From positions 5,297-69,296 of the forward strand of contig JARRNM010000024.1 in assembly GCA_037384945.1 (NCBI GenBank): 64,000 nt of DNA, read 5' to 3'. This DNA is from Deltaproteobacteria bacterium. Its GTDB lineage: Bacteria > Desulfobacterota > Syntrophobacteria > BM002. Of the stretch, positions 4,880 to 64,000 are shown piece after piece. Position numbers and translations under genes: made by a program. A model generated the notes under the pieces. It was not told where the DNA came from. It saw only the letters and a list, made by a program, of their open reading frames with translations, and did not search any database. The stretch's first letter is position 1. Every line of letters begins with the position of its first letter.

Positions 4880-4922
4880 ATGTTTCTCTCCCTCTTTCCA
4901 GATTACTTACCAAGTAATTGAC

Positions 4923-5334
4923 CACACAGAGCACAAAGGTCACAAAGGATAAACGATAGAGATCGTTAAAGTCGTTAAAGTCGTTGAAGTCGTTAAAGTC
5001 GTTGAAGTCGTTGAAGTCGTTGAAGTCGTTGAAGTCGTAAACGGTAAACGGTAAACCGTTGAAACTATTCCTTTCTCAGGTCTAAACTTTGAACTTGGAA
5101 CTTTGAACTTGGAACTTGAATCCTCCGACCTCCGACCTCTGACCTCCGACCTCTGACCTCCGTCCTCTGTCCTCCCGCGTCTGTCCTCTGTCCTCTCACC
5201 TCGTCTCGCTCGACATCCCGTCTCGTCTTACTCCATGCTCTATGCCCTATGCCTATGTCACAACGGACCACGGACCACGGACAACTGACACTCAACGGTT
5301 TCTACGATTTCAACGATTTCAACGGCTGTATCGT
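4923..5334. repeat. intergenic word-chain repeat region between E2 and lpdA
   Basis: About ten different tandem word modules in series (see finding 1). Confidence 0.95.
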
Positions 5335-6654: not shown

Positions 6655-6704
6655 GGCAACTTCTCCTCTTCTGATGCTAAATGCGATGCTTGTGATTTTT
6701 CAAG

Positions 6705-6986
6705 CCACAGAGCTCACCAAGTCCCCGTCAATTCGTCGATTAGTCAACTCGTCAAATGGTTCAATGGTCAAAGAGTTAATTCGCCACTGAAGCTATTCAG
6801 AACCGTTTGACCTTTGGGCATGTTAACGATTTGGCTTCCTGCCTGTTACCTCGGCGCTCTAATCCCCGTCTCGCTCGTCTCGCCCGACATCTCGTCTCGT
6901 ATTACTCCATGCTCTATGCCTTCCCCACAACGGACCACCCCAGTGGAATGGACTTCGTATTCCACGGGGCAGGAGGACAACTGACA
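6705..6986 (+). repeat. composite word-chain element between E1 beta and E2
   Basis: Collinear with the reverse complement of 31224-31447. Confidence 0.9.
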
Positions 6987-6994
6987 ATCCCTGA

Positions 6995-7985: not shown

Positions 7986-9083
7986 CTACTCCTTTTCTTC
8001 CTTTTCTGCCAATTCCAGGCTGAGTTCTTCTCGTTGTTCCTCGAGGTAGGGCGGTAATTCTTCGAAAACGTTGTCAAACATGAGCAAGGGATCCCCGAGC
8101 TCCTTTTGTTTTTTCTCGTAGCCTGTCACTGCTTCCTTGATCTCCTGCTTGATCTCTTCCTCCAGGGAATCGATCTCTTTTGCCGAAAGCAGGTCTCTGT
8201 CAATCAGGTATTTCTGAAATCGGCTGAGGGGGTCTCGTTTGGACCATTCTTCTAACTCTTCCTCCTTCCGGTAGCGTTTCGGATCGTCTGCTGTGGTGTG
8301 CATGGTCATCCTGTAAGTCACGCATTCAATCATGCTGGGCCCTCCTCCCGATCGACCCCTTTCCACACATTCCTTTGCCGCGGCATAAACTGCGAGTATA
8401 TCGTTTCCATCCACCTGCATTCCGGGAATGCCGTAGGCAAGAGCCTTTTGCGCCAGGGTCTTGGAACGGCTTTGCTGGGCCCGCGGAATGGAGATGGCCC
8501 AGTGATTGTTTTGGCAGACAAAGATAGTGGGAGTCTGGAATACCCCGGCAAAATTCAGGGCTTCGTGGAAATCACCTTCCGAGGTGGCGCCATCGCCGAA
8601 GAAAACCATGGCCACATTCTTTTTTCCCCGGTATTTAATAGCATAGCCTAGTCCTACGGCATGGGGAATTTGGGTGCCAACGGGGATAGATACGGGCAGG
8701 TTGTTGATGCCTTCTGGAATAGTACCTCCCTCGTTGTACCCACCATAGGCAAGGAGGACACTTTCGAGGCTCTTGCCGCGCCATACCTCTGCAGCCATTT
8801 CCCGAAAGGAGGGAAGCAGCCAATCGTCGTCCTCCAGAGTTGCAGCAGCACCCAACTGGGAGGCCTCCTGCCCCTTGATGGGGGCGAAGGTCCCTATACG
8901 CCCCTGGCGCTGCAGGCTTAGCAAGCGCTCATCAAACCTTCGGCTCAGCAGCATTGATCGGTGTAGTTTGATCAAGAGCTCCTCCGGCATGTTCGGCTCG
9001 AGCTCTTCGTCTACTTGGCCATCTTCGCTCAAAATTGAAAGGTATTCGATCCGGCAGGGGATATCAACTTTTTCTCGTGGCAC
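7986..9083 (-). CDS. 2-oxoacid dehydrogenase E1 component alpha subunit (TPP-dependent)
   Basis: TPP-binding GDGATSEGDFHEALNFA motif, GTG start. Substrate (pyruvate, branched-chain or acetoin) cannot be determined. Confidence 0.9.
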   Translation of the reverse strand: MPREKVDIPCRIEYLSILSEDGQVDEELEPNMPEELLIKLHRSMLLSRRFDERLLSLQRQGRIGTFAPIKGQEASQLGAAATLEDDDWLLPSFREMAAEVWRGKSLESVLLAYGGYNEGGTIPEGINNLPVSIPVGTQIPHAVGLGYAIKYRGKKNVAMVFFGDGATSEGDFHEALNFAGVFQTPTIFVCQNNHWAISIPRAQQSRSKTLAQKALAYGIPGMQVDGNDILAVYAAAKECVERGRSGGGPSMIECVTYRMTMHTTADDPKRYRKEEELEEWSKRDPLSRFQKYLIDRDLLSAKEIDSLEEEIKQEIKEAVTGYEKKQKELGDPLLMFDNVFEELPPYLEEQREELSLELAEKEEKE

Positions 9084-53923: not shown

Positions 53924-54073
53924 AAATCCCCCTTTAGAGGCTGTCCGACAACGTCATTCTGAGGCGTGAGCCGAAGAATCTCGAAGGCGTAAGTACCTGA
54001 ATCGATGAGATTCGCTCAGAATGACAGCAGGAGGCGTTGAGTGAGTTGTCGGACAGCCTCTTTAGGGGGATTT
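53924..54073. repeat. 150-bp nested palindrome
   Basis: Outer arms AAATCCCCCTTTAGAGGCTGTCCGACAAC / GTTGTCGGACAGCCTCTTTAGGGGGATTT. Inner arms GTCATTCTGAGG / GCTCAGAATGAC. Confidence 0.85.
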
Positions 54074-54134
54074 TATAAGATAATTTGGTGGGTATTGAGA
54101 CCCGTGCTCCGTTGGCCTCCTAGACCATTTATCA

Positions 54135-54228
54135 TAGAGTTTTAGTCTTTACCCTATGCTCCATGCCCTATGTCATTTACACAACGGACAACTGACGACT
54201 GACAGCGAAGCGCTAGGGGGGTGGCGCG
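54135..54228. repeat. intergenic word-chain repeat region
   Basis: CCCTATGCTCCATGCCCTATG, ACAACGGACAACTGACGACTGACAGCGAAGCG. Confidence 0.8.
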
Positions 54229-54260
54229 TCTTGACCTGACGATGCCCTACATTCTGTGTT

Positions 54261-55523
54261 TTACTGATTCGTAGAACCTTCGAGAGTGCGTACTCTTACT
54301 TCCACTTTTTCGCGGAGTTGGGGATAGGCTGACGGGTTGGCGGCTAAAAACTGGCGGTAGTGGGTGAGAGCCTCTTCCTGTTGTCCCTGCTCTTCCAGCA
54401 TCCGGGCAAGATTGTAATGGGCTTCGGGGTTCTCCGGGTCATTTATCAGTACTCGCTCAAGTGTGCGGCGAGCCAGTTCTCCTCGACGAAGCCGTTCATA
54501 GACCAAAGCCAGGTTGACCTCGCTTTGGCTGTTGCCAGGATTCAACTGCAAGGCCTGCTCATAAGCGGCACGAGCTTTGACGAAATCCCTCAACCTGTAA
54601 TAGATGATGCCTAAATTGTTATAACTAGGATAGAAGCGAGGGTTTATACTGATGGCCTTCTCGTAATACTTAGCAGCCATTTTCAGCTGGCCCTCCTTTT
54701 CGTAACAAACACCGATATTATTGTAAATTTCGGCGCTCATGGGGTCGTATTTGAGCACTTTGTTGTAGGTTTCGATTGCCTTTTGCCACTTCATAGTTTT
54801 TTGATACCCCACCGCCTTTCGATACAAGGAAGAGGCGCCGGCCGTGGATTCCGCATAGAGATTGACCTGACCGCTCTTCCTGCTTCTGCCGGAGTTTGGC
54901 TGTGCTCCTTCACTAATCGTGATTGTTTTTAGCTTTTTGGTTGACTCCGGGGCGGCGAGGTGCTCAGGCTTGCTTTCCTCTGCTCTGTGGACCTTAGGCT
55001 GGCCCATCTTCTCTGGACGAAGAGGTTCTTTCTCACCTTTAACCTGTGCGGCCGAGTGTAGGCTAACCACGCCTACTTTTACCTTGTTGCGGGGCTGCAA
55101 TGGGGTCCGTTTGTTCACCGCTTCTTCTGGGGAAACCGCTTGTTCCTCAATAGCAACCTGAACAACTTTCGGCTTCACCGGGGTCCGCTCATCCTCCTTT
55201 GGCTCTTGTGCCTGCTGGAGCTCTGCGCCAGCATCACTCTTTGACAGCTCCCGTGGAGGGTGGATCTTCTCGAAAATAACCCGCTGTGGGACTGGGGTCT
55301 GAGCCTCCTCAGCCGCGTTCTTCCCACCTTTACTCAGAATCATCCCGTAAACAACTACACCGATGACGATGCCGGCAAGCAGCGCAATTAAAGCTAAAAG
55401 CATTAGAAGCCGCTTCTTATTCGCAGGCCTCTGACCAGCGAGTCTACGGGGGATCACCGGTGGTTGTTTGTGCCCTGCCCGCTGATCAGCCACTCTTTTC
55501 AGAGATTCGGAAATAAGGCTCAC
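54261..55523 (-). CDS. TPR-repeat protein with N-terminal membrane anchor (pilus cluster)
   Basis: A TM segment (LLMLLALIALLAGIVIGVVVYG), a Pro/Lys/Glu-rich linker, and ~6 TPR units (AIETYNKVLKYDP..., AAKYYEKAISINP...). GTG start. Confidence 0.8.
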   Translation of the reverse strand: MSLISESLKRVADQRAGHKQPPVIPRRLAGQRPANKKRLLMLLALIALLAGIVIGVVVYGMILSKGGKNAAEEAQTPVPQRVIFEKIHPPRELSKSDAGAELQQAQEPKEDERTPVKPKVVQVAIEEQAVSPEEAVNKRTPLQPRNKVKVGVVSLHSAAQVKGEKEPLRPEKMGQPKVHRAEESKPEHLAAPESTKKLKTITISEGAQPNSGRSRKSGQVNLYAESTAGASSLYRKAVGYQKTMKWQKAIETYNKVLKYDPMSAEIYNNIGVCYEKEGQLKMAAKYYEKAISINPRFYPSYNNLGIIYYRLRDFVKARAAYEQALQLNPGNSQSEVNLALVYERLRRGELARRTLERVLINDPENPEAHYNLARMLEEQGQQEEALTHYRQFLAANPSAYPQLREKVEVRVRTLEGSTNQ

Positions 55524-55798
55524 GCCTAACCTCCTTCAGAGGAAGCCGTTCAATCGTTCGGTTTCGGCGAACTCGTTCTAACCGTTCAAATGATTGAAAT
55601 CGTTAAAAATAAAGTAGCCAGTAGCCAGCAGTCAGTAGGTAAGAAAAAAGACTCTTGCCTCCATCTTCTGGATTCTGAATTCTCTGCGTTTTCCTAAATT
55701 CGAAATTCTAAGTCCGAAATTCAAAATTGTTTTCTGTCTTCTGTCCTCAGTCGTCTGTCCTCCGACCTCTGACTTCCGTTATCCCTGGTCTCCGTGGT
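55524..55798. repeat. intergenic word-chain repeat region inside pilus cluster
   Basis: CGTTCAA/CGTTGAA words, GTAGCCAGTAGCCAGCAGTCAGTAGG, TCTGGATTCTGAATTCTC, CGAAATTC words, TGTCCTC words and CCGACCTCTGAC. Confidence 0.85.
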
Positions 55799-57322
55799 TC
55801 AATCTTTGTTAGCTCCTTGGCCCTTCGAACTCTCCTTGTGCGTGGCAATCTGTCTGGCCCTCGGAAATTCGCTCTTTTGACTGAGCTTGCGGGCCATAAC
55901 CTGTGCCTCGCCTTTGTCTTTGTACTTGCCTACCAGAACCCTGTACCAGGTACCCATCTCACCCAAATCTATCCAGGCAACCCAGGCATCAAAGCCGCGA
56001 TTCTGCAGTTGCCGCATTCTCGTCGCTGCGATTTCCGGGTCTTGAAAGGATTCCACTTGTACGGTGTAGACATACGGCGGTTTGAGCAGGTACTGGGGAA
56101 ACCTTTCCTTAGCTGGTTTGATATCAGACCTTGCCAAGACAGCTGTCTTTGCCTCTTCTCTTCCATCTTCCACAACCGGGTGAGCTTTCGAATTGGCATC
56201 ACCTAGCAAACTCTCCAAAGAAGGATCTTTGTCCAGAGGTGAAGGGGAGGTCAAATTCCTTTTTTCGGTCCGGATCGGGCTTTTCATCACTGCCGGCTTT
56301 GGCTGTGGGATCTCAGCCCGGACAAATTGGCGCGAGTAGTTAAGGGGAGCGAAAGACTTCTGAGTAACGGTCCTGTTCACATAGGTTTTCAACATCTCCC
56401 TGATTGCGGGGACAAACACCAATGCGCTTGCTATTACCAGAACGGAAAAGGCGACTGCGACCTCTTTCCAATTGTGGCTGAACCTGAGCAGCGGACTGGA
56501 ACGGCTTCTTGGAAATCTGCCGTTCAGACTCTGCCTCCCCTCTATCACGTGAGTCTGCCTTATTTTGCGGCTTTCCCCCAGATAGGCGGCCAGCAAGGAG
56601 CGCTCGGCAATTATATTAATCAGCCTCGGCACTCCCTTGGAGAAACGGTAAATCTCACGGTGTGCCCTTTTGTCGAAAGAGGTGCTTCCCGCAGCTCTCG
56701 CCATATTCAGACGGTGCTGCAGGTACATTCTGGTTTCCCTCTTATCAAGAGGTCTCAGGTGGTAACGGAGAGAGATGCGCTGCTGCAGATGACGAAGCTC
56801 AAATCCCTCCAATTTGGCCGGCAGTTCCTCGCTCCCCACCAGAATTATCTGAATGAGTTTCTCCTTGTGGGTCTCTAAATTGGAAAGTAACCTCACCTGC
56901 TCTAGACATTCTGTGGAGAGATGCTGGGCCTCGTCGATTATCAAAACCGCTGTTCTTCCGGCAGCCAGAGTTTTCAGGAGAAAGCGATTGAGCACATCCA
57001 GTAACTCTTTTCTGGTGGCTCCAGCCGAGGGCAGTCCGAAGTCTTCCAAAATGGCCCTGAGCAGCTCCTCTTCGTTGAGCAAGGGATTCAGGATGAGGGA
57101 GGTAGCAACCTCGCGGGGATCGAGTCGCTCCAGCAGGGCCCGGCACAAAGTGGTCTTTCCGGTACCCGTATCTCCGCTGATCAGAACGAATCCCTCTTTT
57201 TGATGAATCCCGTAAAGAAGATGGTCCAGGGCCTCGCGGTGCTTTTCGCTGAAAAAGAGAAACTTGGGATCGGGGGTCAACCCGAATGGTTTCTCCCGGA
57301 GGCCAAAAAAATCCAGGTACAT
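55799..57322 (-). CDS. ExeA/GspA/MshM-like AAA ATPase with C-terminal SPOR domain
   Basis: MYLDFFGLREKPF N-terminus and Walker A GDTGTGKTT. The C-terminus YTVQVESFQDPEIAATRM...GTWYRVLVGKYKDKGEA is SPOR-like. Confidence 0.85.
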   Translation of the reverse strand: MYLDFFGLREKPFGLTPDPKFLFFSEKHREALDHLLYGIHQKEGFVLISGDTGTGKTTLCRALLERLDPREVATSLILNPLLNEEELLRAILEDFGLPSAGATRKELLDVLNRFLLKTLAAGRTAVLIIDEAQHLSTECLEQVRLLSNLETHKEKLIQIILVGSEELPAKLEGFELRHLQQRISLRYHLRPLDKRETRMYLQHRLNMARAAGSTSFDKRAHREIYRFSKGVPRLINIIAERSLLAAYLGESRKIRQTHVIEGRQSLNGRFPRSRSSPLLRFSHNWKEVAVAFSVLVIASALVFVPAIREMLKTYVNRTVTQKSFAPLNYSRQFVRAEIPQPKPAVMKSPIRTEKRNLTSPSPLDKDPSLESLLGDANSKAHPVVEDGREEAKTAVLARSDIKPAKERFPQYLLKPPYVYTVQVESFQDPEIAATRMRQLQNRGFDAWVAWIDLGEMGTWYRVLVGKYKDKGEAQVMARKLSQKSEFPRARQIATHKESSKGQGANKD

Positions 57323-57331
57323 AATCCTCTC

Positions 57332-58969
57332 TCATGGATTGAGGTAATCTATGGGCATGCGATCCTGCTGTTCAAGTAAATCTAATCGCCTGAGATCTTC
57401 GGACTTTATCTCCTCGATCCTCTTGCCGGTGAGCACCGTTGGGCTGATCAAGATTACCAGTTCCGTTTTCTCCGCGCTTTCCTCTCTGTAACCGAACAGA
57501 TAGCCGAAAACCGGTAGGTTCGTCAGGCAAGGGAGTCCCGTCCTTGTCGAGCTTTCCTGATCCTGAAGGAGCCCGGCAATGATGATGGTCTGCCCGTCTC
57601 GCACTTTGACCACTGTGTCGGCCTCCCGAATGCGAAGGAGGGGAAACTCGGTGCCGTCGGGAGCTGCAACTCTATCAAACTCGGCCGTTATGCTCGGGTG
57701 GATGTTCATAGTGATATAGCCGCCCCCGCCAATCTGGGGGGTTACATCCAGGATAACCCCCACGTCGATGGTGTTGGGCGTGAAAGACTGCAAGGTGCTC
57801 GTTTGCGCCTGGCTTATTTCCGAGGTAAAGTACACATCCTGTCTGGCCTCTTTGATAATGGCCGTCTGATTGTTCATGGTGGACACTTTGGGACTGGCCA
57901 AGGCTTTGACCTTGCCCTGGGTCTCCAGGGCTTTTACTAGATCAGAAAGGACAAAATCACCGTTTGCCAGCGGCCCGGTAGCACCCGCAACGAGCAGAGC
58001 ACCCGTTGCGCTAGTTGGCGTCCCCCCGCCGAATATGTTCCAACTGAGCGACAGCTGGCTGAGATCCAGGTTCAATAACTCCGTTTGGATGTTGTCCCAG
58101 CGGACGCCGGTCTCGAACTCCTTTCTCAGGGTCACTTCCAAGATACGGGCCTGGATGAGCACCTGGCGCTGGATTGAAACCTCCATCTGCTCCAAAAACC
58201 TTGCCACCTCTTGCAGCTTGTCCGGATAGTCCCGCACCTGAATGAGGCCGCTTATCTTGCTGATCACCAGCTGCCTGCCGTCTTTGCTGGACATGCTCGA
58301 TACCACGCCCGACTCCCGAGCCCGGAGCACTGCCGTGGGTTTCTCCTCCTGAAAGATGATTGCGGTCAAACCCTCCTGGAGTTCCGCCCAAAAGTCCATC
58401 TCGTCCTTGCCGCTGATACGAGTCTCACTGGCGCTGATCTGTTCACCACCGGCCCCTGCGCCCTGGGTGGCCACTACGGTCTTTTCCCCTTTACGGTTGG
58501 TGCTAATGTAATTTACCTGAAAGATCTTCGTCTCCAGTACCGGCTTGGAGATGCGGATTATACTACCCTCCCTGCGATAACTGAAGCCCAGCTGGCCGAG
58601 GATTGCCTCCAGTGCCTGCTCCAAGGTCACCCGATTGAGGTTTACCGTCACTGTACCAGTCACGTCTGGATCCACCACCAGATTTTCTCCGCTTTCCTGG
58701 GCGAGGGCAAGGAGTACATCTTGTATTTGTGCTTCCCGAACCCGGAGCGAGTAAACTTTGCCGGGACTGCCGATAGCTAGACGCGCCGGTTCTTCTTCTT
58801 GGAATTGGGGGACGGTCAGTTCCTCGAGTGAAGATTCAGGAGCCGGAAATGTCTCTGGTGGCCTTGCAGGTGCGGGTTCAGGCTGGCTGGCACACCCTGG
58901 TAATAAATAGACCACGGCGAGAATAGCAACCGCAAGTAAGCTTTTTATGCAAATCTTCCGGCTAATCAT
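57332..58969 (-). CDS. type IV pilus / type II secretion-family secretin (PilQ/MshL-like lipoprotein)
   Basis: Lipobox LLPGCAS and a secretin C-domain (VVKVRDGQTIIIAGLLQD ... LPVFGYLFGY ... ELVILISPTV). Confidence 0.9.
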   Translation of the reverse strand: MISRKICIKSLLAVAILAVVYLLPGCASQPEPAPARPPETFPAPESSLEELTVPQFQEEEPARLAIGSPGKVYSLRVREAQIQDVLLALAQESGENLVVDPDVTGTVTVNLNRVTLEQALEAILGQLGFSYRREGSIIRISKPVLETKIFQVNYISTNRKGEKTVVATQGAGAGGEQISASETRISGKDEMDFWAELQEGLTAIIFQEEKPTAVLRARESGVVSSMSSKDGRQLVISKISGLIQVRDYPDKLQEVARFLEQMEVSIQRQVLIQARILEVTLRKEFETGVRWDNIQTELLNLDLSQLSLSWNIFGGGTPTSATGALLVAGATGPLANGDFVLSDLVKALETQGKVKALASPKVSTMNNQTAIIKEARQDVYFTSEISQAQTSTLQSFTPNTIDVGVILDVTPQIGGGGYITMNIHPSITAEFDRVAAPDGTEFPLLRIREADTVVKVRDGQTIIIAGLLQDQESSTRTGLPCLTNLPVFGYLFGYREESAEKTELVILISPTVLTGKRIEEIKSEDLRRLDLLEQQDRMPIDYLNP

Positions 58970-58989
58970 TTTCCTCCCATCGTAGCTGG

Positions 58990-59077
58990 AATCCTGGAGT
59001 GTTGGAATAATGGAATATTGGGTACAGTTTCCAAGTTTCCATCATTCCACCATTCCATCATTCCCTACTCCCCAGGG
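58990..59077. repeat. short word-chain repeat
   Basis: GGAATAATGGAATATTGG inverted against CCATCATTCCACCATTCCATCATTCC. Confidence 0.75.
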
Positions 59078-59608
59078 TCACCTCTTTCTAGCGCCCTCTA
59101 CCGTTACTTTCGTTTTCGGCTGAGGTACCTCGAGCAAACGCTCGCCACTGGCTCCGTTAAGGACTACATGATCCAGGGTAATACTGGAGATCGTTTCTCC
59201 GCCAATTTCATCCCCCACGGCATAAATCCTATCGTCGATAACTGCCAAGCGCTTCGATCCACTGACCAAAACGGTGGAAAGTTTATATTGCGGTCCCTTC
59301 GTTTCACCCTCTTGTTTAGGTCTAGCCACCTTCTGTGGAGTTGTCGCAGTCTCTTCGGCCGCCTGATATGGGGAGTAAAAGGGATCACGGCCCCAGCCAC
59401 CAGGAACCACTTCCTCCGGTTCTTCCTCTATCTCTTGTTTCTCTTGCTTACCGCTTTGGGCCAAAGTCACCAACATCTTATCCAGCGGCGCGCCTGGCTG
59501 GACCTCCTCACGCTTAGGCCCAAATAACCAGACAATTCCCCAGAGGGAAAGAACCACACCCACCACGCAGTAAACAAAAATCTTATTTGGCGGTTTCGTC
59601 AGGTCCAT
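59078..59608 (-). CDS. PilP/GspC-like pilus assembly protein (hypothetical)
   Basis: N-terminal TM, an RDPF motif, and a C-terminus KRLAVIDDRIYAVGDEIGGETISSITLDHVVL typical of PilP/GspB/MshK-type proteins. Confidence 0.55.
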   Translation of the reverse strand: MDLTKPPNKIFVYCVVGVVLSLWGIVWLFGPKREEVQPGAPLDKMLVTLAQSGKQEKQEIEEEPEEVVPGGWGRDPFYSPYQAAEETATTPQKVARPKQEGETKGPQYKLSTVLVSGSKRLAVIDDRIYAVGDEIGGETISSITLDHVVLNGASGERLLEVPQPKTKVTVEGARKR

Positions 59609-59793
59609 TAAAATCGTTCTATCGTTCGCTTCCAGCGAACTCGTCCAAATCGGAAGAGCTCAAGCTGACAGCAGTCAGTGGCCAGTCCTTAATTTCGAAA
59701 TTTGAAATTTGCACTTCGCAATCTTCTTCTCTATGCTCCATGCCCTATGCCCCATGCGGCGAACGGGGTGGGCTACAACGGACCACGGACTCC
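59609..59793. repeat. intergenic word-chain repeat region inside pilus cluster
   Basis: CGTTC words, CAGTCAGTGGCCAGTCC, AATTTCGAAATTTGAAATTTGC, CTATGCTCCATGCCCTATGCCCCATGC and ACAACGGACCACGGAC. Confidence 0.85.
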
Positions 59794-60351
59794 TTAACTT
59801 CTCACCACAATCTCCAGCTGGAGCTGAATTTGCAGATTTTGTGGACGCTCCCTGCCTCGTTCAACTCTCAACTGGGCAACCTTCACGTAAAACGGCTGTT
59901 TTTCGAGGGAGCTGATGAATTCACCCAGCTGCTCGTAACGTCCTCGAATTCCGAGATTAAGCACAAGTTGCCGAAATTCTCCCATTTTGCCGCCCTGAGT
60001 CCGCAGAGCGGTGTCTCTTTCCGGTCGAAGATTTTCAATCTGAAGGCCCTGAGTTTTAGCCTGTCTACTCACCTCGTTGATTATCTCCGCAGGTTCAGCC
60101 TTGTAGGAAAGCGCCTTTTCCAGTTCAGCTACCTGCTGTCTCTTGTTGAGCAAATTTGCATTCAGGGAGTTGAATTCCACGAGCTTAGGTCCGATGCTCG
60201 TAGTCTGCTGATTTAACTCTTCAAGCTCATTTTGAAGTTTGCGGAGCTTTTTCGACTGAGGCTCCAGCAGAAATTGGTTGACACAAAAGACAATCGCTAC
60301 CAAGCCAACCACAGCGGTGATTATCTTTTCTCTGGTATTTAGTTCACGCAT
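59794..60351 (-). CDS. pilO: PilO-like pilus assembly protein
   Basis: N-terminal TM, a coiled coil, and a C-terminal ferredoxin-like part (LNLGIRGRYEQLGEFISSLEKQPFYVKV). Confidence 0.65.
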   Translation of the reverse strand: MRELNTREKIITAVVGLVAIVFCVNQFLLEPQSKKLRKLQNELEELNQQTTSIGPKLVEFNSLNANLLNKRQQVAELEKALSYKAEPAEIINEVSRQAKTQGLQIENLRPERDTALRTQGGKMGEFRQLVLNLGIRGRYEQLGEFISSLEKQPFYVKVAQLRVERGRERPQNLQIQLQLEIVVRS

Positions 60352-60732
60352 TCTACTCTCCGAGCCTGTCAGTAGTCGGTCGTCCGTTGTTAAAGCCGTT
60401 CTATCATCAGGCTTCGCCGGATTGGTTCAAATCGTGAAAAATCTTAAGATCATCATCATGTTCAATTTTTCCGTGGGGCGGGGCACCGTACCCGTCTTAA
60501 GACTCTTTAGTGAAAAGCTCTCTGTCGGCCGGCACGGTGGCCGGCCCTACTCCTGAATTCTGGATTCTGACTCTTTACTCCTTGCTCTCTGCCCTATGCT
60601 CTATGCTCTATACTTACCGCAATCCGAAATTTACGTCCGGCTTCTGACCTCTGTCTCCTTTACCTTATGGCTGGCGCCCTGAGCCTTGTGCCCCTAGTTC
60701 CATGCCCCATGCCTAACCACGGACAATTGACT
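60352..60732. repeat. intergenic word-chain repeat region inside pilus cluster
   Basis: GTCAGTAGTCGGTCGTCCGTTG, two GC hairpins (GGGGCGGGGCACCG..., GTCGGCCGGCACGGTGGCCGGCCCTAC), CTGAATTCTGGATTCTGAC, CTATGCC words, and CCATGCCCCATGCC...CCACGGACAATTGAC. Confidence 0.9.
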
Positions 60733-62427
60733 TCACTTGAGAGTGCAGCCAATCTCGAAAGCCAATACTGCCGGCCTGGGGACTTTCTGATCTCCGGCCC
60801 TTGCGAGTTCCACATTGGAGAATATTTTTGTTTTTCCCAGCTCCTCCATAAAATTGGTGAGCATGGGAAAAGCTTCTTCCTTCTCTCCATAAATCAGACC
60901 TTGCAGTTTAACCTCAAGTCCACTCCCCTCCTTTTCCTTGAAATCCATGTTTGTCATTGACATATTCTCGGGAATTTTCTGGCTGATGAGTCGCAAGGCT
61001 GCAGCCACCCGAGGAAGATGGAGATCCACCTTCGGCAGCTCTGCGAGCCTCGCATTGAGTTGACTGGTTTCTGCTTGCACTCGCTCGTGTTGTTGGAAAA
61101 TATATCTGTACTGCTCAAAGGTGCTCTTTTTGATATGCACCGCACTTTGAAGAGAGGCAACCTGCCTATGGCTTTGCCAGGCATACTGGCCCAGAGGGAA
61201 CAAAAACAGCAGCCCCAAAGTGGCATAGGCCACCGGTGCCCGCACACTCCACCTTTTTCTATGGGGTTGTAGATCAAGGGGGAGAAGGTTGAACCGCTCT
61301 GTTAAAGGCAGGGAAAGCCCTACTGCCACGGTGAATACCGGCCGAGTTGCCCCGTCCACTTCCGAGAATGCCGTGCTATCCTGGAAAATAATTGGCGCCA
61401 GGGGGTCCAGAAAACCCACCTTTAGGTCAAATCTGTCAGCAAAGAACGACTCGATGCCTTTCAGTTGAGCCGCCCCACCTGCCAGCAAAAGTCTGTTTAT
61501 GGTTTCACCCTGGAACTGAAAAGCATAGTAGTCAAAGGAACGGGAAATTTCTGTCTCTAGCTTCTCGAGCACCGGCCGAATCTTTACGGCCACTTGTGAG
61601 AGAGGTATTCCTTCGGCAGTCTTTCCCCGGTCTTCCACCGAAGGAATGCCGTGCTGCCGCTTGAGCGCTTCCGCCTGGGCAGTATTCAATTCAATCTCTT
61701 GCTCACCGGCGCGAATCATGCCCGTCAATGCCATGGTGAAGGCGTCACCAGAGGTTGGAACATACCGAGAAAACTGGAGTTCCCGCCCATAAAAGATGTT
61801 GATGCTGGTCTTGCGAGCTCCAAGGTCAAGGACCGCTGTGGCACCCTCTTCAGCCTCTCCCAGATTGGTGTTTCGCCATAATTGTTCAACAGCATGCGGC
61901 TCAGCCATCAGACCTAGAGGCTCCAAACCCGCTTGTTGGAGCACCTCAATGTGCTCCATGACCGCTTCTCTGGTCGCTGCCGCGACCAGCACTTCCTGTT
62001 TAGTTTGACCACCACTGTCATCCCTGGAGAGTACCTGGAAGGCGAGCATGGCATCTCCCAGGGAAAAGGGAAAAAGCTCCCCCGCCTGCCAGCGGATGGC
62101 CTCTTGAATTTCCTCTTCCGGGATCTTTGGCAGGCTCAGTCGGCGAGCTGCGACGCCCTTGCCGGCTAACCCCATCACCGCCTGTTTGGTTTTTATGCGG
62201 TTTTCCTGGAGCATCTCTTTTAATTGAGCCGCCAGCACTGAAACCTGAAAACCTCCAGGAGGAGTGGAAGCCGTGGCGTGGTGTACGAGATCCATGCCCC
62301 TTGGAGTGCTTCGTAACTCCACTATCTTGATGGTGTGAGTGCCCATATCGATGCCCAGGTGGCTTTTACGGGGACCCCTGATCTTTCCCAGAATATCGGG
62401 AGTTTTCATTTTAACTAGTTTTGCCAT
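60733..62427 (-). CDS. pilM: PilM-PilN fusion protein
   Basis: Actin-like ATPase N-terminal part (LGIDMGTHTIKIVEL ... LLLAGGAAQLKG), then FNLLPLDLQ plus a TM and a PilN-like C-terminal region. Confidence 0.85.
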   Translation of the reverse strand: MAKLVKMKTPDILGKIRGPRKSHLGIDMGTHTIKIVELRSTPRGMDLVHHATASTPPGGFQVSVLAAQLKEMLQENRIKTKQAVMGLAGKGVAARRLSLPKIPEEEIQEAIRWQAGELFPFSLGDAMLAFQVLSRDDSGGQTKQEVLVAAATREAVMEHIEVLQQAGLEPLGLMAEPHAVEQLWRNTNLGEAEEGATAVLDLGARKTSINIFYGRELQFSRYVPTSGDAFTMALTGMIRAGEQEIELNTAQAEALKRQHGIPSVEDRGKTAEGIPLSQVAVKIRPVLEKLETEISRSFDYYAFQFQGETINRLLLAGGAAQLKGIESFFADRFDLKVGFLDPLAPIIFQDSTAFSEVDGATRPVFTVAVGLSLPLTERFNLLPLDLQPHRKRWSVRAPVAYATLGLLFLFPLGQYAWQSHRQVASLQSAVHIKKSTFEQYRYIFQQHERVQAETSQLNARLAELPKVDLHLPRVAAALRLISQKIPENMSMTNMDFKEKEGSGLEVKLQGLIYGEKEEAFPMLTNFMEELGKTKIFSNVELARAGDQKVPRPAVLAFEIGCTLK

Positions 62428-62670
62428 GACTCCCCGACCGATGGATTAATGGAAGATTGGAATAATGGGAAATTGGGGAGCGAAACAGGTAACGGTTTTG
62501 CTGGACTTGGCCAGCTGCACCTGTCCCCAGTGTTCCAAAATTCCAGGCAGGCTTTCTCCCCACCCGCAAGATCAGTATATTTGTGTCAACCCAACTATTT
62601 AGGTTACTCATCATCGTTTAATGTTCCATCTGTTTCTGCAAAATATCCTATGCCCTATGCCCTGTGCGTC
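62428..62670. repeat. intergenic word-chain repeat region inside pilus cluster
   Basis: GGATTAATGGAAGATTGGAATAATGGGAAATTGGGG and CCTATGCCCTATGCCCTGTGC. Confidence 0.8.
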
Positions 62671-62949
62671 TCACAATAGTTTCGGCTGTCTCAAATCCTC
62701 TAACGCCCTCTCATAGGCGGCACGGTATCGGAAACCTTGTTGGAGGTATTTCCAGATGGCACGAACCTTATCCACTTCACGAGCCGGATAAAAGCGAAAT
62801 GTCTTCTCGCCCCGTCGCTCTGTTTCCGGCTTAACAAAGGCTTTCTGCTCCAGGTAATAGAGCTTCTGGCGAGGGATCCCAACCTCATGTACCACTTCCG
62901 ATGTTGTCTTCATGATAAACGCCCAACCATGAGAAAGATTTGTAGCCAT
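62671..62949 (-). CDS. MerR-family HTH regulator
   Basis: TTSEVVHEVGIPRQKLYYLEQKAFVKP...FRFYPAREVDKV. ATG 62949 is preceded by GGAAAGAG. The longer ORF to 63045 runs into element copy C. Confidence 0.7.
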   Translation of the reverse strand: MATNLSHGWAFIMKTTSEVVHEVGIPRQKLYYLEQKAFVKPETERRGEKTFRFYPAREVDKVRAIWKYLQQGFRYRAAYERALEDLRQPKLL

Positions 62950-62962
62950 TGACTCTTTCCGT

Positions 62963-63622
62963 CTAACCCACATTTTTCGCGAAACGGCGTCGCGAGACTG
63001 TAAAGATGGGCGTACCACCGGGCAACCACAGGGGGTTGGATCCAAGACGTACTTGAATAGTACGTCGCAGGAGCCGACACCCGAGGACGACCGTAAGGAC
63101 AGCTATATCTGCAGTAGCAACAGGCGATTCGTGAAATATGTGGGTTAAGTTCAAATAGTCAGGACAAGAAACTTCTGAACCTTCACACCCCTCGCCCTGC
63201 TCACGACAGAATCTCGAGCGGAGAACTCGCGTTGCCTCTCCATAAGTGCCGGTGGAGATAACGCTGACACACATGTAAGTGCCGCCCTCCACCTCGCAGT
63301 TGCCATAAGAACAATAGGAGTCTGAGGCTATGGTGAAAGTCCCGCTGCCAAGAGTCTTCTCCGCTTCAATTGAGTTCCAGCAGCGAAGGTCACTGAGGTA
63401 TTTGCCAGCCCAATTAATTCCCGCCTCTGCCACATAAAAGGCGCTGGTTGATTGAGCCGTAATCGGCACTGACTTTTGCTTGCTGGCCATCATACTTACC
63501 ATGGAGTAACCAATGGCAGACAGTACCAGCATGACGAAGACTACAACCAGCACCGAAAAGCCTCTCTGACCCCTCAGTAGCCCCAGTAGCCCATTTGTCT
63601 CTTGCTCACAGGTTTGTTTCAT
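62963..63622 (-). CDS. PilX-like minor (pseudo)pilin; C-terminal ~61 codons read through element copy C
   Basis: QRGFSVLVVVFVMLVLSAIGYSM ... SAFYVAEAGINWA matches the PilX N-terminal domain. The stop TAG sits at the last bases of the element. Confidence 0.6.
   Translation of the reverse strand: MKQTCEQETNGLLGLLRGQRGFSVLVVVFVMLVLSAIGYSMVSMMASKQKSVPITAQSTSAFYVAEAGINWAGKYLSDLRCWNSIEAEKTLGSGTFTIASDSYCSYGNCEVEGGTYMCVSVISTGTYGEATRVLRSRFCREQGEGCEGSEVSCPDYLNLTHIFHESPVATADIAVLTVVLGCRLLRRTIQVRLGSNPLWLPGGTPIFTVSRRRFAKNVG
62964..63147 (-). repeat. copy C of the ~180-nt structured element (inverted relative to copy A)
   Basis: Termini TAACCCACATTTTTCGCGAA / TTCGTGAAATATGTGGGTTA pair. Hairpin GACGTACT-TGAAT-AGTACGTC. 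Core GTCGCGAGACTGTAAAGATGGG is the reverse complement of the copy A core. Confidence 0.7.
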
Positions 63623-63649
63623 TTACCTAAGCCTCCTGAAAGGGGCGTC

Positions 63650-63840
63650 CGTTGTTTGTCGTCTGCTGTCCGTTGTGTAAATGGCATAGAGCATAGGGCA
63701 TGGAGCATGGAGTAAATACAAAATCCTTCACTCTATGCTCTATGCCTCGCCAAATCCGCGATCCGAAATCCGAAATTCTGTCCTCTGCCAGCTGCCCGCT
63801 GCTTCCTGCCAGCTCGCAGTTCCCTTGCGCCTTGTGCCCT
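63650..63840. repeat. intergenic word-chain repeat region
   Basis: GTCCGTTGT words, inverted then direct CTATGCC words, AAATCCGAAATCCGAAATTC, TGTCCTC, and CTGCCCGCTG / CTGCCAGCT words. Confidence 0.85.
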
Positions 63841-64000
63841 TTATGAAACATTCCTCATATGCACCTTCGTCCTCATTGAAACGCTTCCACCCTCCGGTGA
63901 ACTCAGCGTCAGCTCCAAGGTCACGACCGTTGTCCCACTGACCGCACTGGTCACATATATGCTATACCAATAGTTATTAAACGACCCACCTGACGGAAAA
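63841..64000 (-). CDS. partial CDS (C-terminus only), possibly a minor pilin
   Basis: The minus-strand frame is open from the window edge to TAA at 63841-63843 (…NNYWYSIYVTSAVSGTTVVTLELTLSSPEGGSVSMRTKVHMRNVS). The function is guessed from context only. Confidence 0.3.
   Translation of the reverse strand, partial: FPSGGSFNNYWYSIYVTSAVSGTTVVTLELTLSSPEGGSVSMRTKVHMRNVS

Follow-up and report, generated by a model that had tools for sequence, protein, structure and literature searches.

Hypervariable tandem-word spacers in an MSHA-like pilus cluster of a deltaproteobacterium, probably passengers of an operon that is still polycistronic

The window analysed here is a stretch of 64,000 nucleotides from the metagenome-assembled genome (MAG) of a Deltaproteobacteria bacterium, an uncultured organism related to sulfate reducers (G000 below; 4.7 Mb in 325 contigs; the window is C24:5297-69296). 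Between positions 54261 and 63045 its minus strand carries a pilus gene cluster in which every junction except one is filled with chains of tandem 7-, 8- and 9-base words. We show that these spacers are derived and hypervariable, having been inserted into an ancestrally compact operon. The reading we prefer, with a probability of roughly 0.55, is that they are selfish hairpin elements resembling the intervening sequences (IVS) of rRNA, together with the remnants of such elements, accumulated in the junctions of operons that still work and transcribed as passengers.

The cluster is laid out below from its upstream end, with the spacer words read on the coding strand (minus); TRF is the tandem array finder used.

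62671-63045, minus strand: MerR-like helix-turn-helix gene, upstream of the pilus genes (Pfam MerR_1, E=4e-5).
62428-62670, minus strand: spacer E, MerR-like to PilM(N), 243 bp (sequence, TRF, relatives); GGGCATA heptamers at 62647-62665; a weak inverted 8-mer pair, GGAATTTT-type at 62523-62545 and ATTATTCC-type at 62439-62475.
60733-62427, minus strand: PilM-type pilus assembly gene with a C-terminal extension (MshI-like), 564 aa (PilM_2, E=2.5e-32; TIGR01175, 185 bits).
60352-60732, minus strand: spacer D, PilM(N) to PilO, 381 bp (sequence, TRF); GTCCGTG at 60715-60731; GGCATGG-type heptamers at 60675-60714; CAGAGGT at 60634-60654; AATTTCG at 60617-60632; GAGCATA at 60578-60612; GAATCCA at 60550-60574; a palindromic element of ~80 nt at 60471-60550; a TTGAACGAT-type 9-mer block with an embedded small hairpin at 60385-60441; CAACGGA heptamers at 60365-60390; ribosome-binding site (RBS) GGAGAG.
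59794-60351, minus strand: PilO/GspM-like gene, 185 aa (Pfam PilO, E=4e-10).
59609-59793, minus strand: spacer C, PilO to the 176-aa gene, 185 bp (sequence, relatives); GTCCGTG x2 at 59776-59790; GGGCATA x4 at 59729-59757; AAATTTC at 59691-59712; CTGGCCA/CTGACTG at 59665-59688; 9-mers with the hairpin GAGTTCGCTggaAGCGAAC at 59609-59656, up to the ATG.
59078-59608, minus strand: 176-aa gene, weakly GspC/PilP-like (NCBIfam GspC_delta, E=3e-5), with an orthologue in every relative.
58970-59077, minus strand: spacer B, 176-aa gene to secretin, 108 bp, a single long hairpin formed by inverted 8-mer arrays, with a GGAATGAT-type 5' arm at 59035-59065 and a ATTATTCC-type 3' arm at 58985-59020, then RBS GGGAGG.
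57332-58969, minus strand: MshL/PilQ-type secretin, 545 aa (Secretin, E=5e-41; TIGR02519 MshL, 213 bits, cut-off 250).
57323-57331, minus strand: secretin/ExeA junction, TGA + 9 nt + ATG with the RBS within, the sole compact junction of the cluster.
55799-57322, minus strand: ExeA/MshM-like AAA_22 ATPase with a C-terminal SPOR domain, 507 aa (AAA_22, E=4e-28; SPOR, E=3e-13).
55524-55798, minus strand: spacer A, ExeA-like to TPR, 275 bp (sequence, TRF); ACCACGGAG right after the stop at 55783-55798; CAGAGGT-type heptamers x5.4 at 55734-55771; AATTTCG x5 at 55694-55728; GAATTCA/GAATCCA at 55665-55685; CTACTGA/CTGCTGG at 55614-55638; a TTGAACGRY 9-mer block with the hairpin GAGTTCGccgaaaCCGAAC at 55543-55608; RBS GAAGGAGG at 55529-55536.
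54261-55523, minus strand: TPR protein (MshN/PilW-like; several TPR families), the final gene of the cluster.

The gene order, PilM/N-like, PilO-like, small protein, secretin, ExeA-like and TPR, fits the secretory half of MSHA-type clusters (mshI-N). We call the cluster MSHA-like, not an MSHA member, because the secretin and the ATPase (295 bits to TIGR03015, cut-off 324.5) score under the NCBIfam cut-offs. The MerR-like gene has orthologues at the equivalent place in 8 related loci. The 176-aa gene has no obvious Shine-Dalgarno sequence, a 9-mer array reaching its ATG (59609-59620), and its relatives are likewise without one. An earlier note on this DNA had reported word-chain spacers at all pilus junctions but secretin/ExeA, and five of them, of 108-381 bp and with TRF arrays in each, are indeed present. 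Its coordinates were right save for the fourth spacer (B), which starts at 58970 and not at 58990, the secretin ATG being at 58969. The gaps of 340-450 bp that it gave for a dehydrogenase cluster of the window, against 4 nt at E1a/E1b, are confirmed as 340 and 455 bp against 4 nt.

Spacers A, C and D follow a similar word order: GTCCGTG or ACCACGGAG stands at the stop codon, then come heptamers (GGCATAG, CAGAGGT, AATTTCG, GAATCCA and CTGACTG types), a TTGAACGAT-type 9-mer block with a small hairpin, and the RBS. In spacer D the CAACGGA heptamers near the end are complementary to the first word, GTCCGTG. The hairpin of spacer B has a minimum free energy of -42.7 kcal/mol, with z scores of -4.1 on the coding strand and -6.1 on the other; the fold of spacer E is unexceptional (z -0.5). 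The idea that each spacer is one large structured RNA was rejected, whole-spacer folds giving z -2.0/-2.35 for A and -0.8/-0.7 for D on the two strands. Rfam gave no match at gathering thresholds in the window and none at E<=1 in 55400-62800.

The word chains make up only part of the spacer DNA, as spacer E has a non-repeat core of ~90 nt (about 62560-62646) and spacer D its palindromic element of ~80 nt. The spacer E core contains CCTAAATAGTTGGGTTGACACAAATATACTGATCTTGCG, is ~80% conserved in the related loci L009 and L010, and is absent from L019, whose junction there is 66 nt only. It might be a promoter of the pilus genes or a site for their regulation; it has no fitting sigma70 spacing. 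The palindromic element (GTAGGGCCGG...CCCGCCCYACGG) was found at three junctions in three species, namely at 60471-60550 of the window, in the ExeA/TPR spacer of L013 and in the PilO/176-aa spacer of L017. It was considered as a multicopy miniature inverted-repeat transposable element (MITE) and rejected as such, being single-copy in G000 (blastn, regex, nhmmer).

The arrays are a property of the spacers and not of the genes. By TRF, 7/8/9-mer arrays cover 309 of the 1192 bp of the five pilus spacers and 15 of the 7209 bp of six genes, and in shuffled pilus spacers (n=100) the cover averages 1.9 bp with a maximum of 42 bp. Exact 12-mers that occur at least 8 times in the genome (0.56 copies expected) hold 18-54% of pilus spacer bases (30% in spacer D, 45% in spacer A) compared with 1-9% of genes. 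The same pattern extends over the genome. TRF returns 4830 rows for G000, 2095 of them with period 7, 732 with period 9 and 481 with period 8. Of the non-coding DNA 7.9% lies in arrays, compared with 0.5% of the coding DNA, a 15-fold enrichment that rests on our own crude gene calls for the coding/non-coding split, and about half of the spacers of at least 200 bp contain one. The vocabulary is restricted, yet it comprises hundreds of word classes (277 heptamer classes) with no single consensus. Neighbouring spacers have about twice as many 10-mers in common as unlinked spacers. By the crude gene calls, G000 has a coding density of ~76-80% and a median same-strand intergenic distance of ~140 bp, both unusual for a bacterium. 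It also encodes four Y1_Tnp genes (IS200/IS605 or RAYT-type), on contigs C198, C26, C93 and C136.

Across G000, arrays lie close to stop codons: the median distance is 46 nt, and 21% are no more than 10 nt away. Their density is higher in convergent spacers (9.8%) than in divergent ones (5.0%). Among 324 paired arrays, 267 have a G-rich 5' arm. This polarity of spacers, G-rich to C-rich, is strand-symmetric and present in all four spacer types, divergent included; coding-strand arrays just after stops are G-rich (86% in the first fifth of the spacer). A word orientation that follows transcription was rejected, since the polarity is mostly strand-symmetric and only a residual sense bias of orphan arrays is left.

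Comparison with relatives reveals how unstable the spacers are. We compared 11 related loci of the genus (designated L009, L010, L011 and so on, L011 being CP070689, a relative labelled as closed), from uncultured MAGs labelled Deltaproteobacteria, Syntrophobacterales or Desulfobacteraceae bacterium. The gene order and the 9-nt secretin/ExeA junction are constant across the 11 loci. The other junctions range over 40-507 bp, differ in content and are mostly unalignable; that of spacer D, for instance, measures 105-239 bp in relatives, with different content. In some relatives the gaps are no longer than 40-66 nt. Compared with the four closest relatives, the genes retain 75-88% DNA identity (the 11-locus comparison as a whole puts the genes at 66-88%), while the spacers score 23-72%, the global aligner used giving 58% for random sequence. 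Of the spacers, only the RBS region is conserved, meaning the 15-25 nt next to each start, with the hairpin of spacer B as an exception; its homologues are kept in L011 and the distant L015 and are lost or replaced in the closer L009, L010 and L019.

Genus loci carry 13-44 bp of arrays per kb, except for three low loci, two of them short fragments. Two other families of the class have a homologous PilM(N)-PilO-x-secretin core, to which the outgroup comparison (four loci) was limited; its junctions measure -4 to +63 nt, and arrays number 0-1 per 16 kb. Because the outgroup families have this compact, array-free homologous cluster, the spacers are derived, and they were inserted into an operon that was ancestrally compact. 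A strict-orthology version of the outgroup comparison was dropped, as the gene order differs in two of the four loci. In L011, a run of 100 N (5215-5314) lies exactly at the PilO/176-aa junction, possibly an assembly join or a masked repeat, and unrelated DNA lies upstream of it (histidine kinase fragment, sigma54 activator and hrcA-grpE, on the other strand). The cluster's apparent split in CP070689 is uninterpretable, since the gap sits precisely at the junction.

The same relatives link the arrays to small genes. At the PilO/176-aa junction L009 has a PF05635 23S_rRNA_IVP gene (E=4.9e-31), and L016 and L019 have a PF13366 GxxExxY gene of the PD-(D/E)XK type, in each case in sense orientation and between inverted word arrays. 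Where these three loci carry cassettes, L014 and L015 have an empty hairpin; hairpins of relatives at equivalent junctions have z scores of -2.4 to -4.3. The five pilus spacers of the window contain no PF05635 open reading frame. Across 15 genus genomes, 24 of 29 PF05635 genes and 11 of 22 PF13366 genes are bracketed by inverted tandem-word arrays at a score of at least 14 (about 16 of the 22 PF13366 genes at a score of at least 12.5). As a control, 1.6% of all G000 genes reach a bracket score of 13.

Furthermore, the arms use the vocabulary of the chains. Many IVP arms are built of chain words (CAGAGGT, GGCAGCA, GGTTTAGCC, AACGATTTG, GCGAGACGA, AGGCGCA, AATTTCG), and the pilO-junction hairpins of L014 and L015 are of the GGTTTAGCC type. 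GxxExxY arms are 9-mers of the CAC[AG][AG]AG type, the type also found in the word after the ExeA stop and in the hairpins at the S3/L16 and L24/L5 junctions of the ribosomal-protein cluster described below. In 28 of 30 callable cases the cassette gene points the same way as its upstream neighbour, compared with 74% of controls, which fits expression by read-through.

The second operon of the window with such spacers is a 2-oxoacid dehydrogenase cluster, with the following features.

7986-9083, minus strand: E1a gene, TAG + 4 nt + ATG to E1b.
6655-6994, minus strand: E1b/E2 spacer, 340 bp of word-chain DNA.
4880-5334, minus strand: E2/E3 spacer, 455 bp (TRF).

The E2/E3 spacer has inverted 9-mer arrays at either end (AATCGTTGA ... 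CTTCAACGA) with heptamer arrays between them, and 68% of its bases fall in 12-mers with 8 or more genomic copies. The seven spacers of the window's two operons all have a positive coding-strand GC skew of +0.08 to +0.21, that is, they are G-rich and C-poor, and as such would be poor Rho substrates.

Similar spacers occur outside the window. The ribosomal-protein cluster of G000 (L4 to secY and beyond, C28:1-15300) carries word-array hairpins at the L4/L23 (92 bp), S3/L16 (178 bp), L24/L5 (190 bp), L6/L18 (216 bp) and L15/secY (204 bp) junctions, several of them nested, with outer arms of CACAGAGAA-type 9-mers and inner arms of heptamers. A nuo-like operon (C12:14673-26512) has spacers of 205-275 bp at almost all of its junctions, and these share one module order, GCATAGA, CAGAGGT, CTCTGAC, ACGATTTCT, ATTTTAGAC.

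In the pilus cluster the arrays end 0-20 nt from start codons; across G000 the gap between the last array and the following start has a median of 80 nt where genes are co-directional, versus 145 nt in divergent, promoter-bearing spacers. A scan of 54000-64000 found no sigma70-like site on the coding strand. Of the terminator-like matches only one, a weak site (55629-55617), falls within a spacer, although the whole region has 20 such matches versus 12.7 in shuffles. The gaps of 40-66 nt in relatives leave no room for a terminator plus a promoter. Because the operon was ancestrally compact, its arrays abut the starts, conservation is limited to the RBS region, sigma70-like sites are absent from the scan, gaps in relatives are short and arrays sit inside ribosomal-protein and nuo-like operons, the sequence evidence suggests that the pilus cluster is probably still polycistronic and that its repeats are transcribed as passengers.

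The IVS-like reading can be set out as follows. The spacers are accumulations of a genus-wide family of tandem 7-, 8- and 9-base words, frequently in inverted pairs that place the G-rich arm first and fold into hairpins of 25-30 bp. Such repeats were inserted into the ancestrally compact pilM(N)-pilO-x-secretin-exeA-TPR operon, where their turnover is much faster than that of the genes. Similar inverted arrays are the arms, in this genus, around two small, apparently promoter-less cargo genes, for the four-helix-bundle IVP and the GxxExxY nuclease, and the chains would represent gene-less copies and decayed single arms of these IVS-like cassettes, settling mostly just past stop codons. The operon would stay one transcription unit in which every gene retains its own RBS and the repeats ride along in the transcript. 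Paired arrays may form double-stranded RNA stems that RNase III could cut as it does in rRNA intervening sequences, splitting the message at the junctions, and unpaired arrays are probably without specific function. Of 15 genus genomes, 11 encode a full-length RNase III.

Several observations weigh against the IVS-like reading. In the window only spacer B is a clean hairpin, and for A, C and D, mostly orphan arrays, descent from cassettes is assumed. We identified no transposase, no mechanism of mobility and no target-site duplication, duplications not having been searched for. Of 904 orphan arrays, 564 have G-rich coding strands, a bias that a purely neutral passenger model does not predict. 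Among 350 inverted repeats of co-directional spacers, coding-strand G.T mismatches show no excess over A.C mismatches (430 vs 386, p=0.13); pairing is not visibly maintained on the transcribed strand, and there is no sign of RNA-pairing selection. In G000 itself RNase III appears only as a fragment with the double-stranded RNA-binding domain (C100:25188-25403, E. coli query), Pfam Ribonucleas_3_3 giving no match, and the closed relative G002 gives no RNase III match; this gap could reflect masking, an incomplete sequence or true loss. No arrays occur in a second nuo cluster (C56) or in the ATP synthase operon (C48), both of them with compact junctions, an unevenness that the reading leaves without explanation. 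Finally, the promoter scan used the sigma70 consensus, which promoters of this lineage may not resemble.

It is unlikely, in our judgement, that the spacers are adaptive RNA modules of a polycistronic mRNA, serving as processing sites, 3'-end stabilisers or attenuators in a REP/BIME-like manner and tuning the relative expression of the pilus genes. Several features would suit that role: the hairpins of spacer B and of relatives at the same junctions beat their shuffles (z -2.4 to -6.1), the one in spacer B is kept in three lineages, arrays lie near stops, are denser in convergent than in divergent spacers and are G-rich on the coding strand after stops, and the skew of the seven spacers would spare them from Rho. 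Junction length and content, however, turn over completely among close species, down to 40-66 bp in some, the inverted repeats have no sense-strand G.U excess, the G-to-C polarity is strand-symmetric in all four spacer types, and whole-spacer folds are ordinary and without an Rfam match. The earlier note had proposed the spacers as RNA processing, stability or attenuation modules; given the wholesale replacement of spacers between species with 76-88% gene identity, the near-absent spacers, the missing G.U excess and the ordinary folds, they find no support as adaptive ones. The processing idea may still hold in mechanism without being adaptive, as the paired arms are plausible RNase III sites. 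An operon broken into single-gene units, with unrecognised promoters or terminators in the arrays (for example in the TTGAACGAT 9-mer blocks upstream of the RBS), seems quite improbable. The spacers, at 108-381 bp, are long enough for such signals, the 9-mer block ahead of the TPR gene keeps its position in six species and is sense-biased genome-wide (17 vs 3), the conserved non-repeat core of spacer E contains TTGACA, and the DNA upstream of the 176-aa gene in CP070689 is unrelated, though the 100-N gap lies at that point. Yet the coding strand lacks any sigma70-like match in the scanned region and the spacers offer one weak terminator-like match, the arrays abut start codons, the short gaps in relatives are too small, and the same chains occur within ribosomal-protein operons, which are polycistronic wherever studied (PMC4679880). 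Between the two branches that the earlier note had posed, polycistronic or single-gene, the comparative evidence favours the former, and hence transcribed repeats.

Also improbable is the explanation that the arrays act as DNA and not as RNA, as binding sites for IHF/HU-like proteins or for the IVP or GxxExxY proteins, with effects on chromosome structure or recombination. It would account for a strand-symmetric architecture with no RNA-strand signature, and for each cargo family having its own arm type. Tandem, helically phased words are typical of protein-binding arrays, and similar paired 7/8/9-mer sites of Geobacter metallireducens have been proposed as sites of a global regulator (PMC2700814). 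Against this, no binding protein has been identified, the hundreds of words exceed any plausible number of regulators, and the hypervariability of orthologous sites speaks against site-specific regulation.

REP/BIME, ERIC and Correia elements are extragenic palindromes found between cistrons and at gene 3' ends; being co-transcribed, they can affect mRNA stability or processing. The repeats described here resemble them in being extragenic and palindromic and in accumulating at 3' ends and between cistrons. However, those are single consensus units of ~35-150 nt, whereas here the arms are tandem words and the chains differ from site to site. A REPIN-RAYT system would have one palindrome of ~35 nt in hundreds of copies and a cognate RAYT gene, and we found hundreds of word classes. 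A MITE would have terminal inverted repeats, a target-site duplication and a related autonomous element encoding a transposase; inverted arms are present here, and the cargo-bearing versions carry no recognisable transposase.

A likeness in overall architecture exists to the 23S rRNA IVS of Coxiella burnetii and Leptospira. In Coxiella, the IVS combines an S23p open reading frame with tandem heptamers that vary in number and with a terminal stem of 28 bp at which RNase III cuts (PMC4990558). Shared with these (PMC4990558) are an inverted-repeat stem of ~25-30 bp, tandem heptamers of variable copy number flanking an open reading frame, a PF05635 four-helix-bundle gene in the loop (at the pilO junction of relatives), a location (here a probable one) inside a transcribed unit, and a selfish, patchy distribution. 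Such a terminal stem is found in spacer B, A, C and D being mainly orphan arrays. Unlike the rRNA IVS, the elements here lie between protein-coding cistrons and not in rRNA helices; they are mostly gene-less, chained and partly decayed, with GxxExxY as a second cargo that has 9-mer arms. Excision by RNase III has been shown for the IVS and is putative here.

Cyanobacterial short tandemly repeated repetitive (STRR) sequences and the TAACTGA heptamers of Beggiatoaceae are intergenic repeats of unknown function, also found in putative ribosomal-protein operons (PMC4679880). They have in common with ours that short tandem heptamers lie nearly all in intergenic DNA at many loci and vary in copy number in 7-nt steps. 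In contrast to them, hundreds of 7-, 8- and 9-nt classes occur here, several arrays are concatenated per spacer, inverted pairs run G-rich first, and the arrays lie near stops where theirs lie directly before starts. The phylum also differs, our host being of the Desulfobacterota/Syntrophobacterales type and not a cyanobacterium, and the words differ from those of STRR, a statement made without word-by-word comparison to STRR1-3. The Geobacter metallireducens sites are paired hepta-, octa- or nonanucleotides with the consensus MTYCTGA and TCTCCGTS, one pair of which lies between proB and proA (PMC2700814). Like our arrays, they consist of 4-5 tandem 7/8/9-mers paired on opposite strands at variable distance, and their consensus resembles the CTTCTGA/CCTCTGA and GTCTCCGTG words found here; the pair in the proBA operon also has an intra-operon position. 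Unlike here, where there are thousands of arrays in about half of the longer spacers, there are few classes with tens of copies each, and the link to cargo genes that we observe is not reported there (PMC2700814).

In practical terms, the repeats fragment metagenome assemblies, may create false joins and do mislead operon prediction from intergenic distance. A more far-reaching version of our reading, which we regard as speculative and on balance unlikely, is that the word chains are both a living population and a graveyard of promoter-less, transposase-less hairpin cassettes, with tandem 7-9-mers as arms and the IVP or the GxxExxY nuclease as cargo, that colonise rRNA helices and operon spacers, with RNase III routinely yielding single-gene mRNAs. 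Their expansion in this genus would have gone so far that some half of the longer spacers hold them, those of the ribosomal-protein operons included. Should this be true, it would amount to a lineage-wide rewiring of operon expression and would hint at where the long-unexplained rRNA intervening sequences come from. Compactness is the norm for bacterial operons, and the ribosomal-protein, respiratory and pilus operons examined here tolerate 100-450 bp of unstable repeat DNA at most of their junctions. The genus thus offers a natural test of how operons bear a load of untranslated structured RNA, with respect to polarity, Rho termination and RNase III processing. Furthermore, the association of arrays with cassettes gives a handle on the identity of tandem heptamers of the STRR-like kind, on the origin of rRNA IVS and on the roles of the S23p and GxxExxY proteins.

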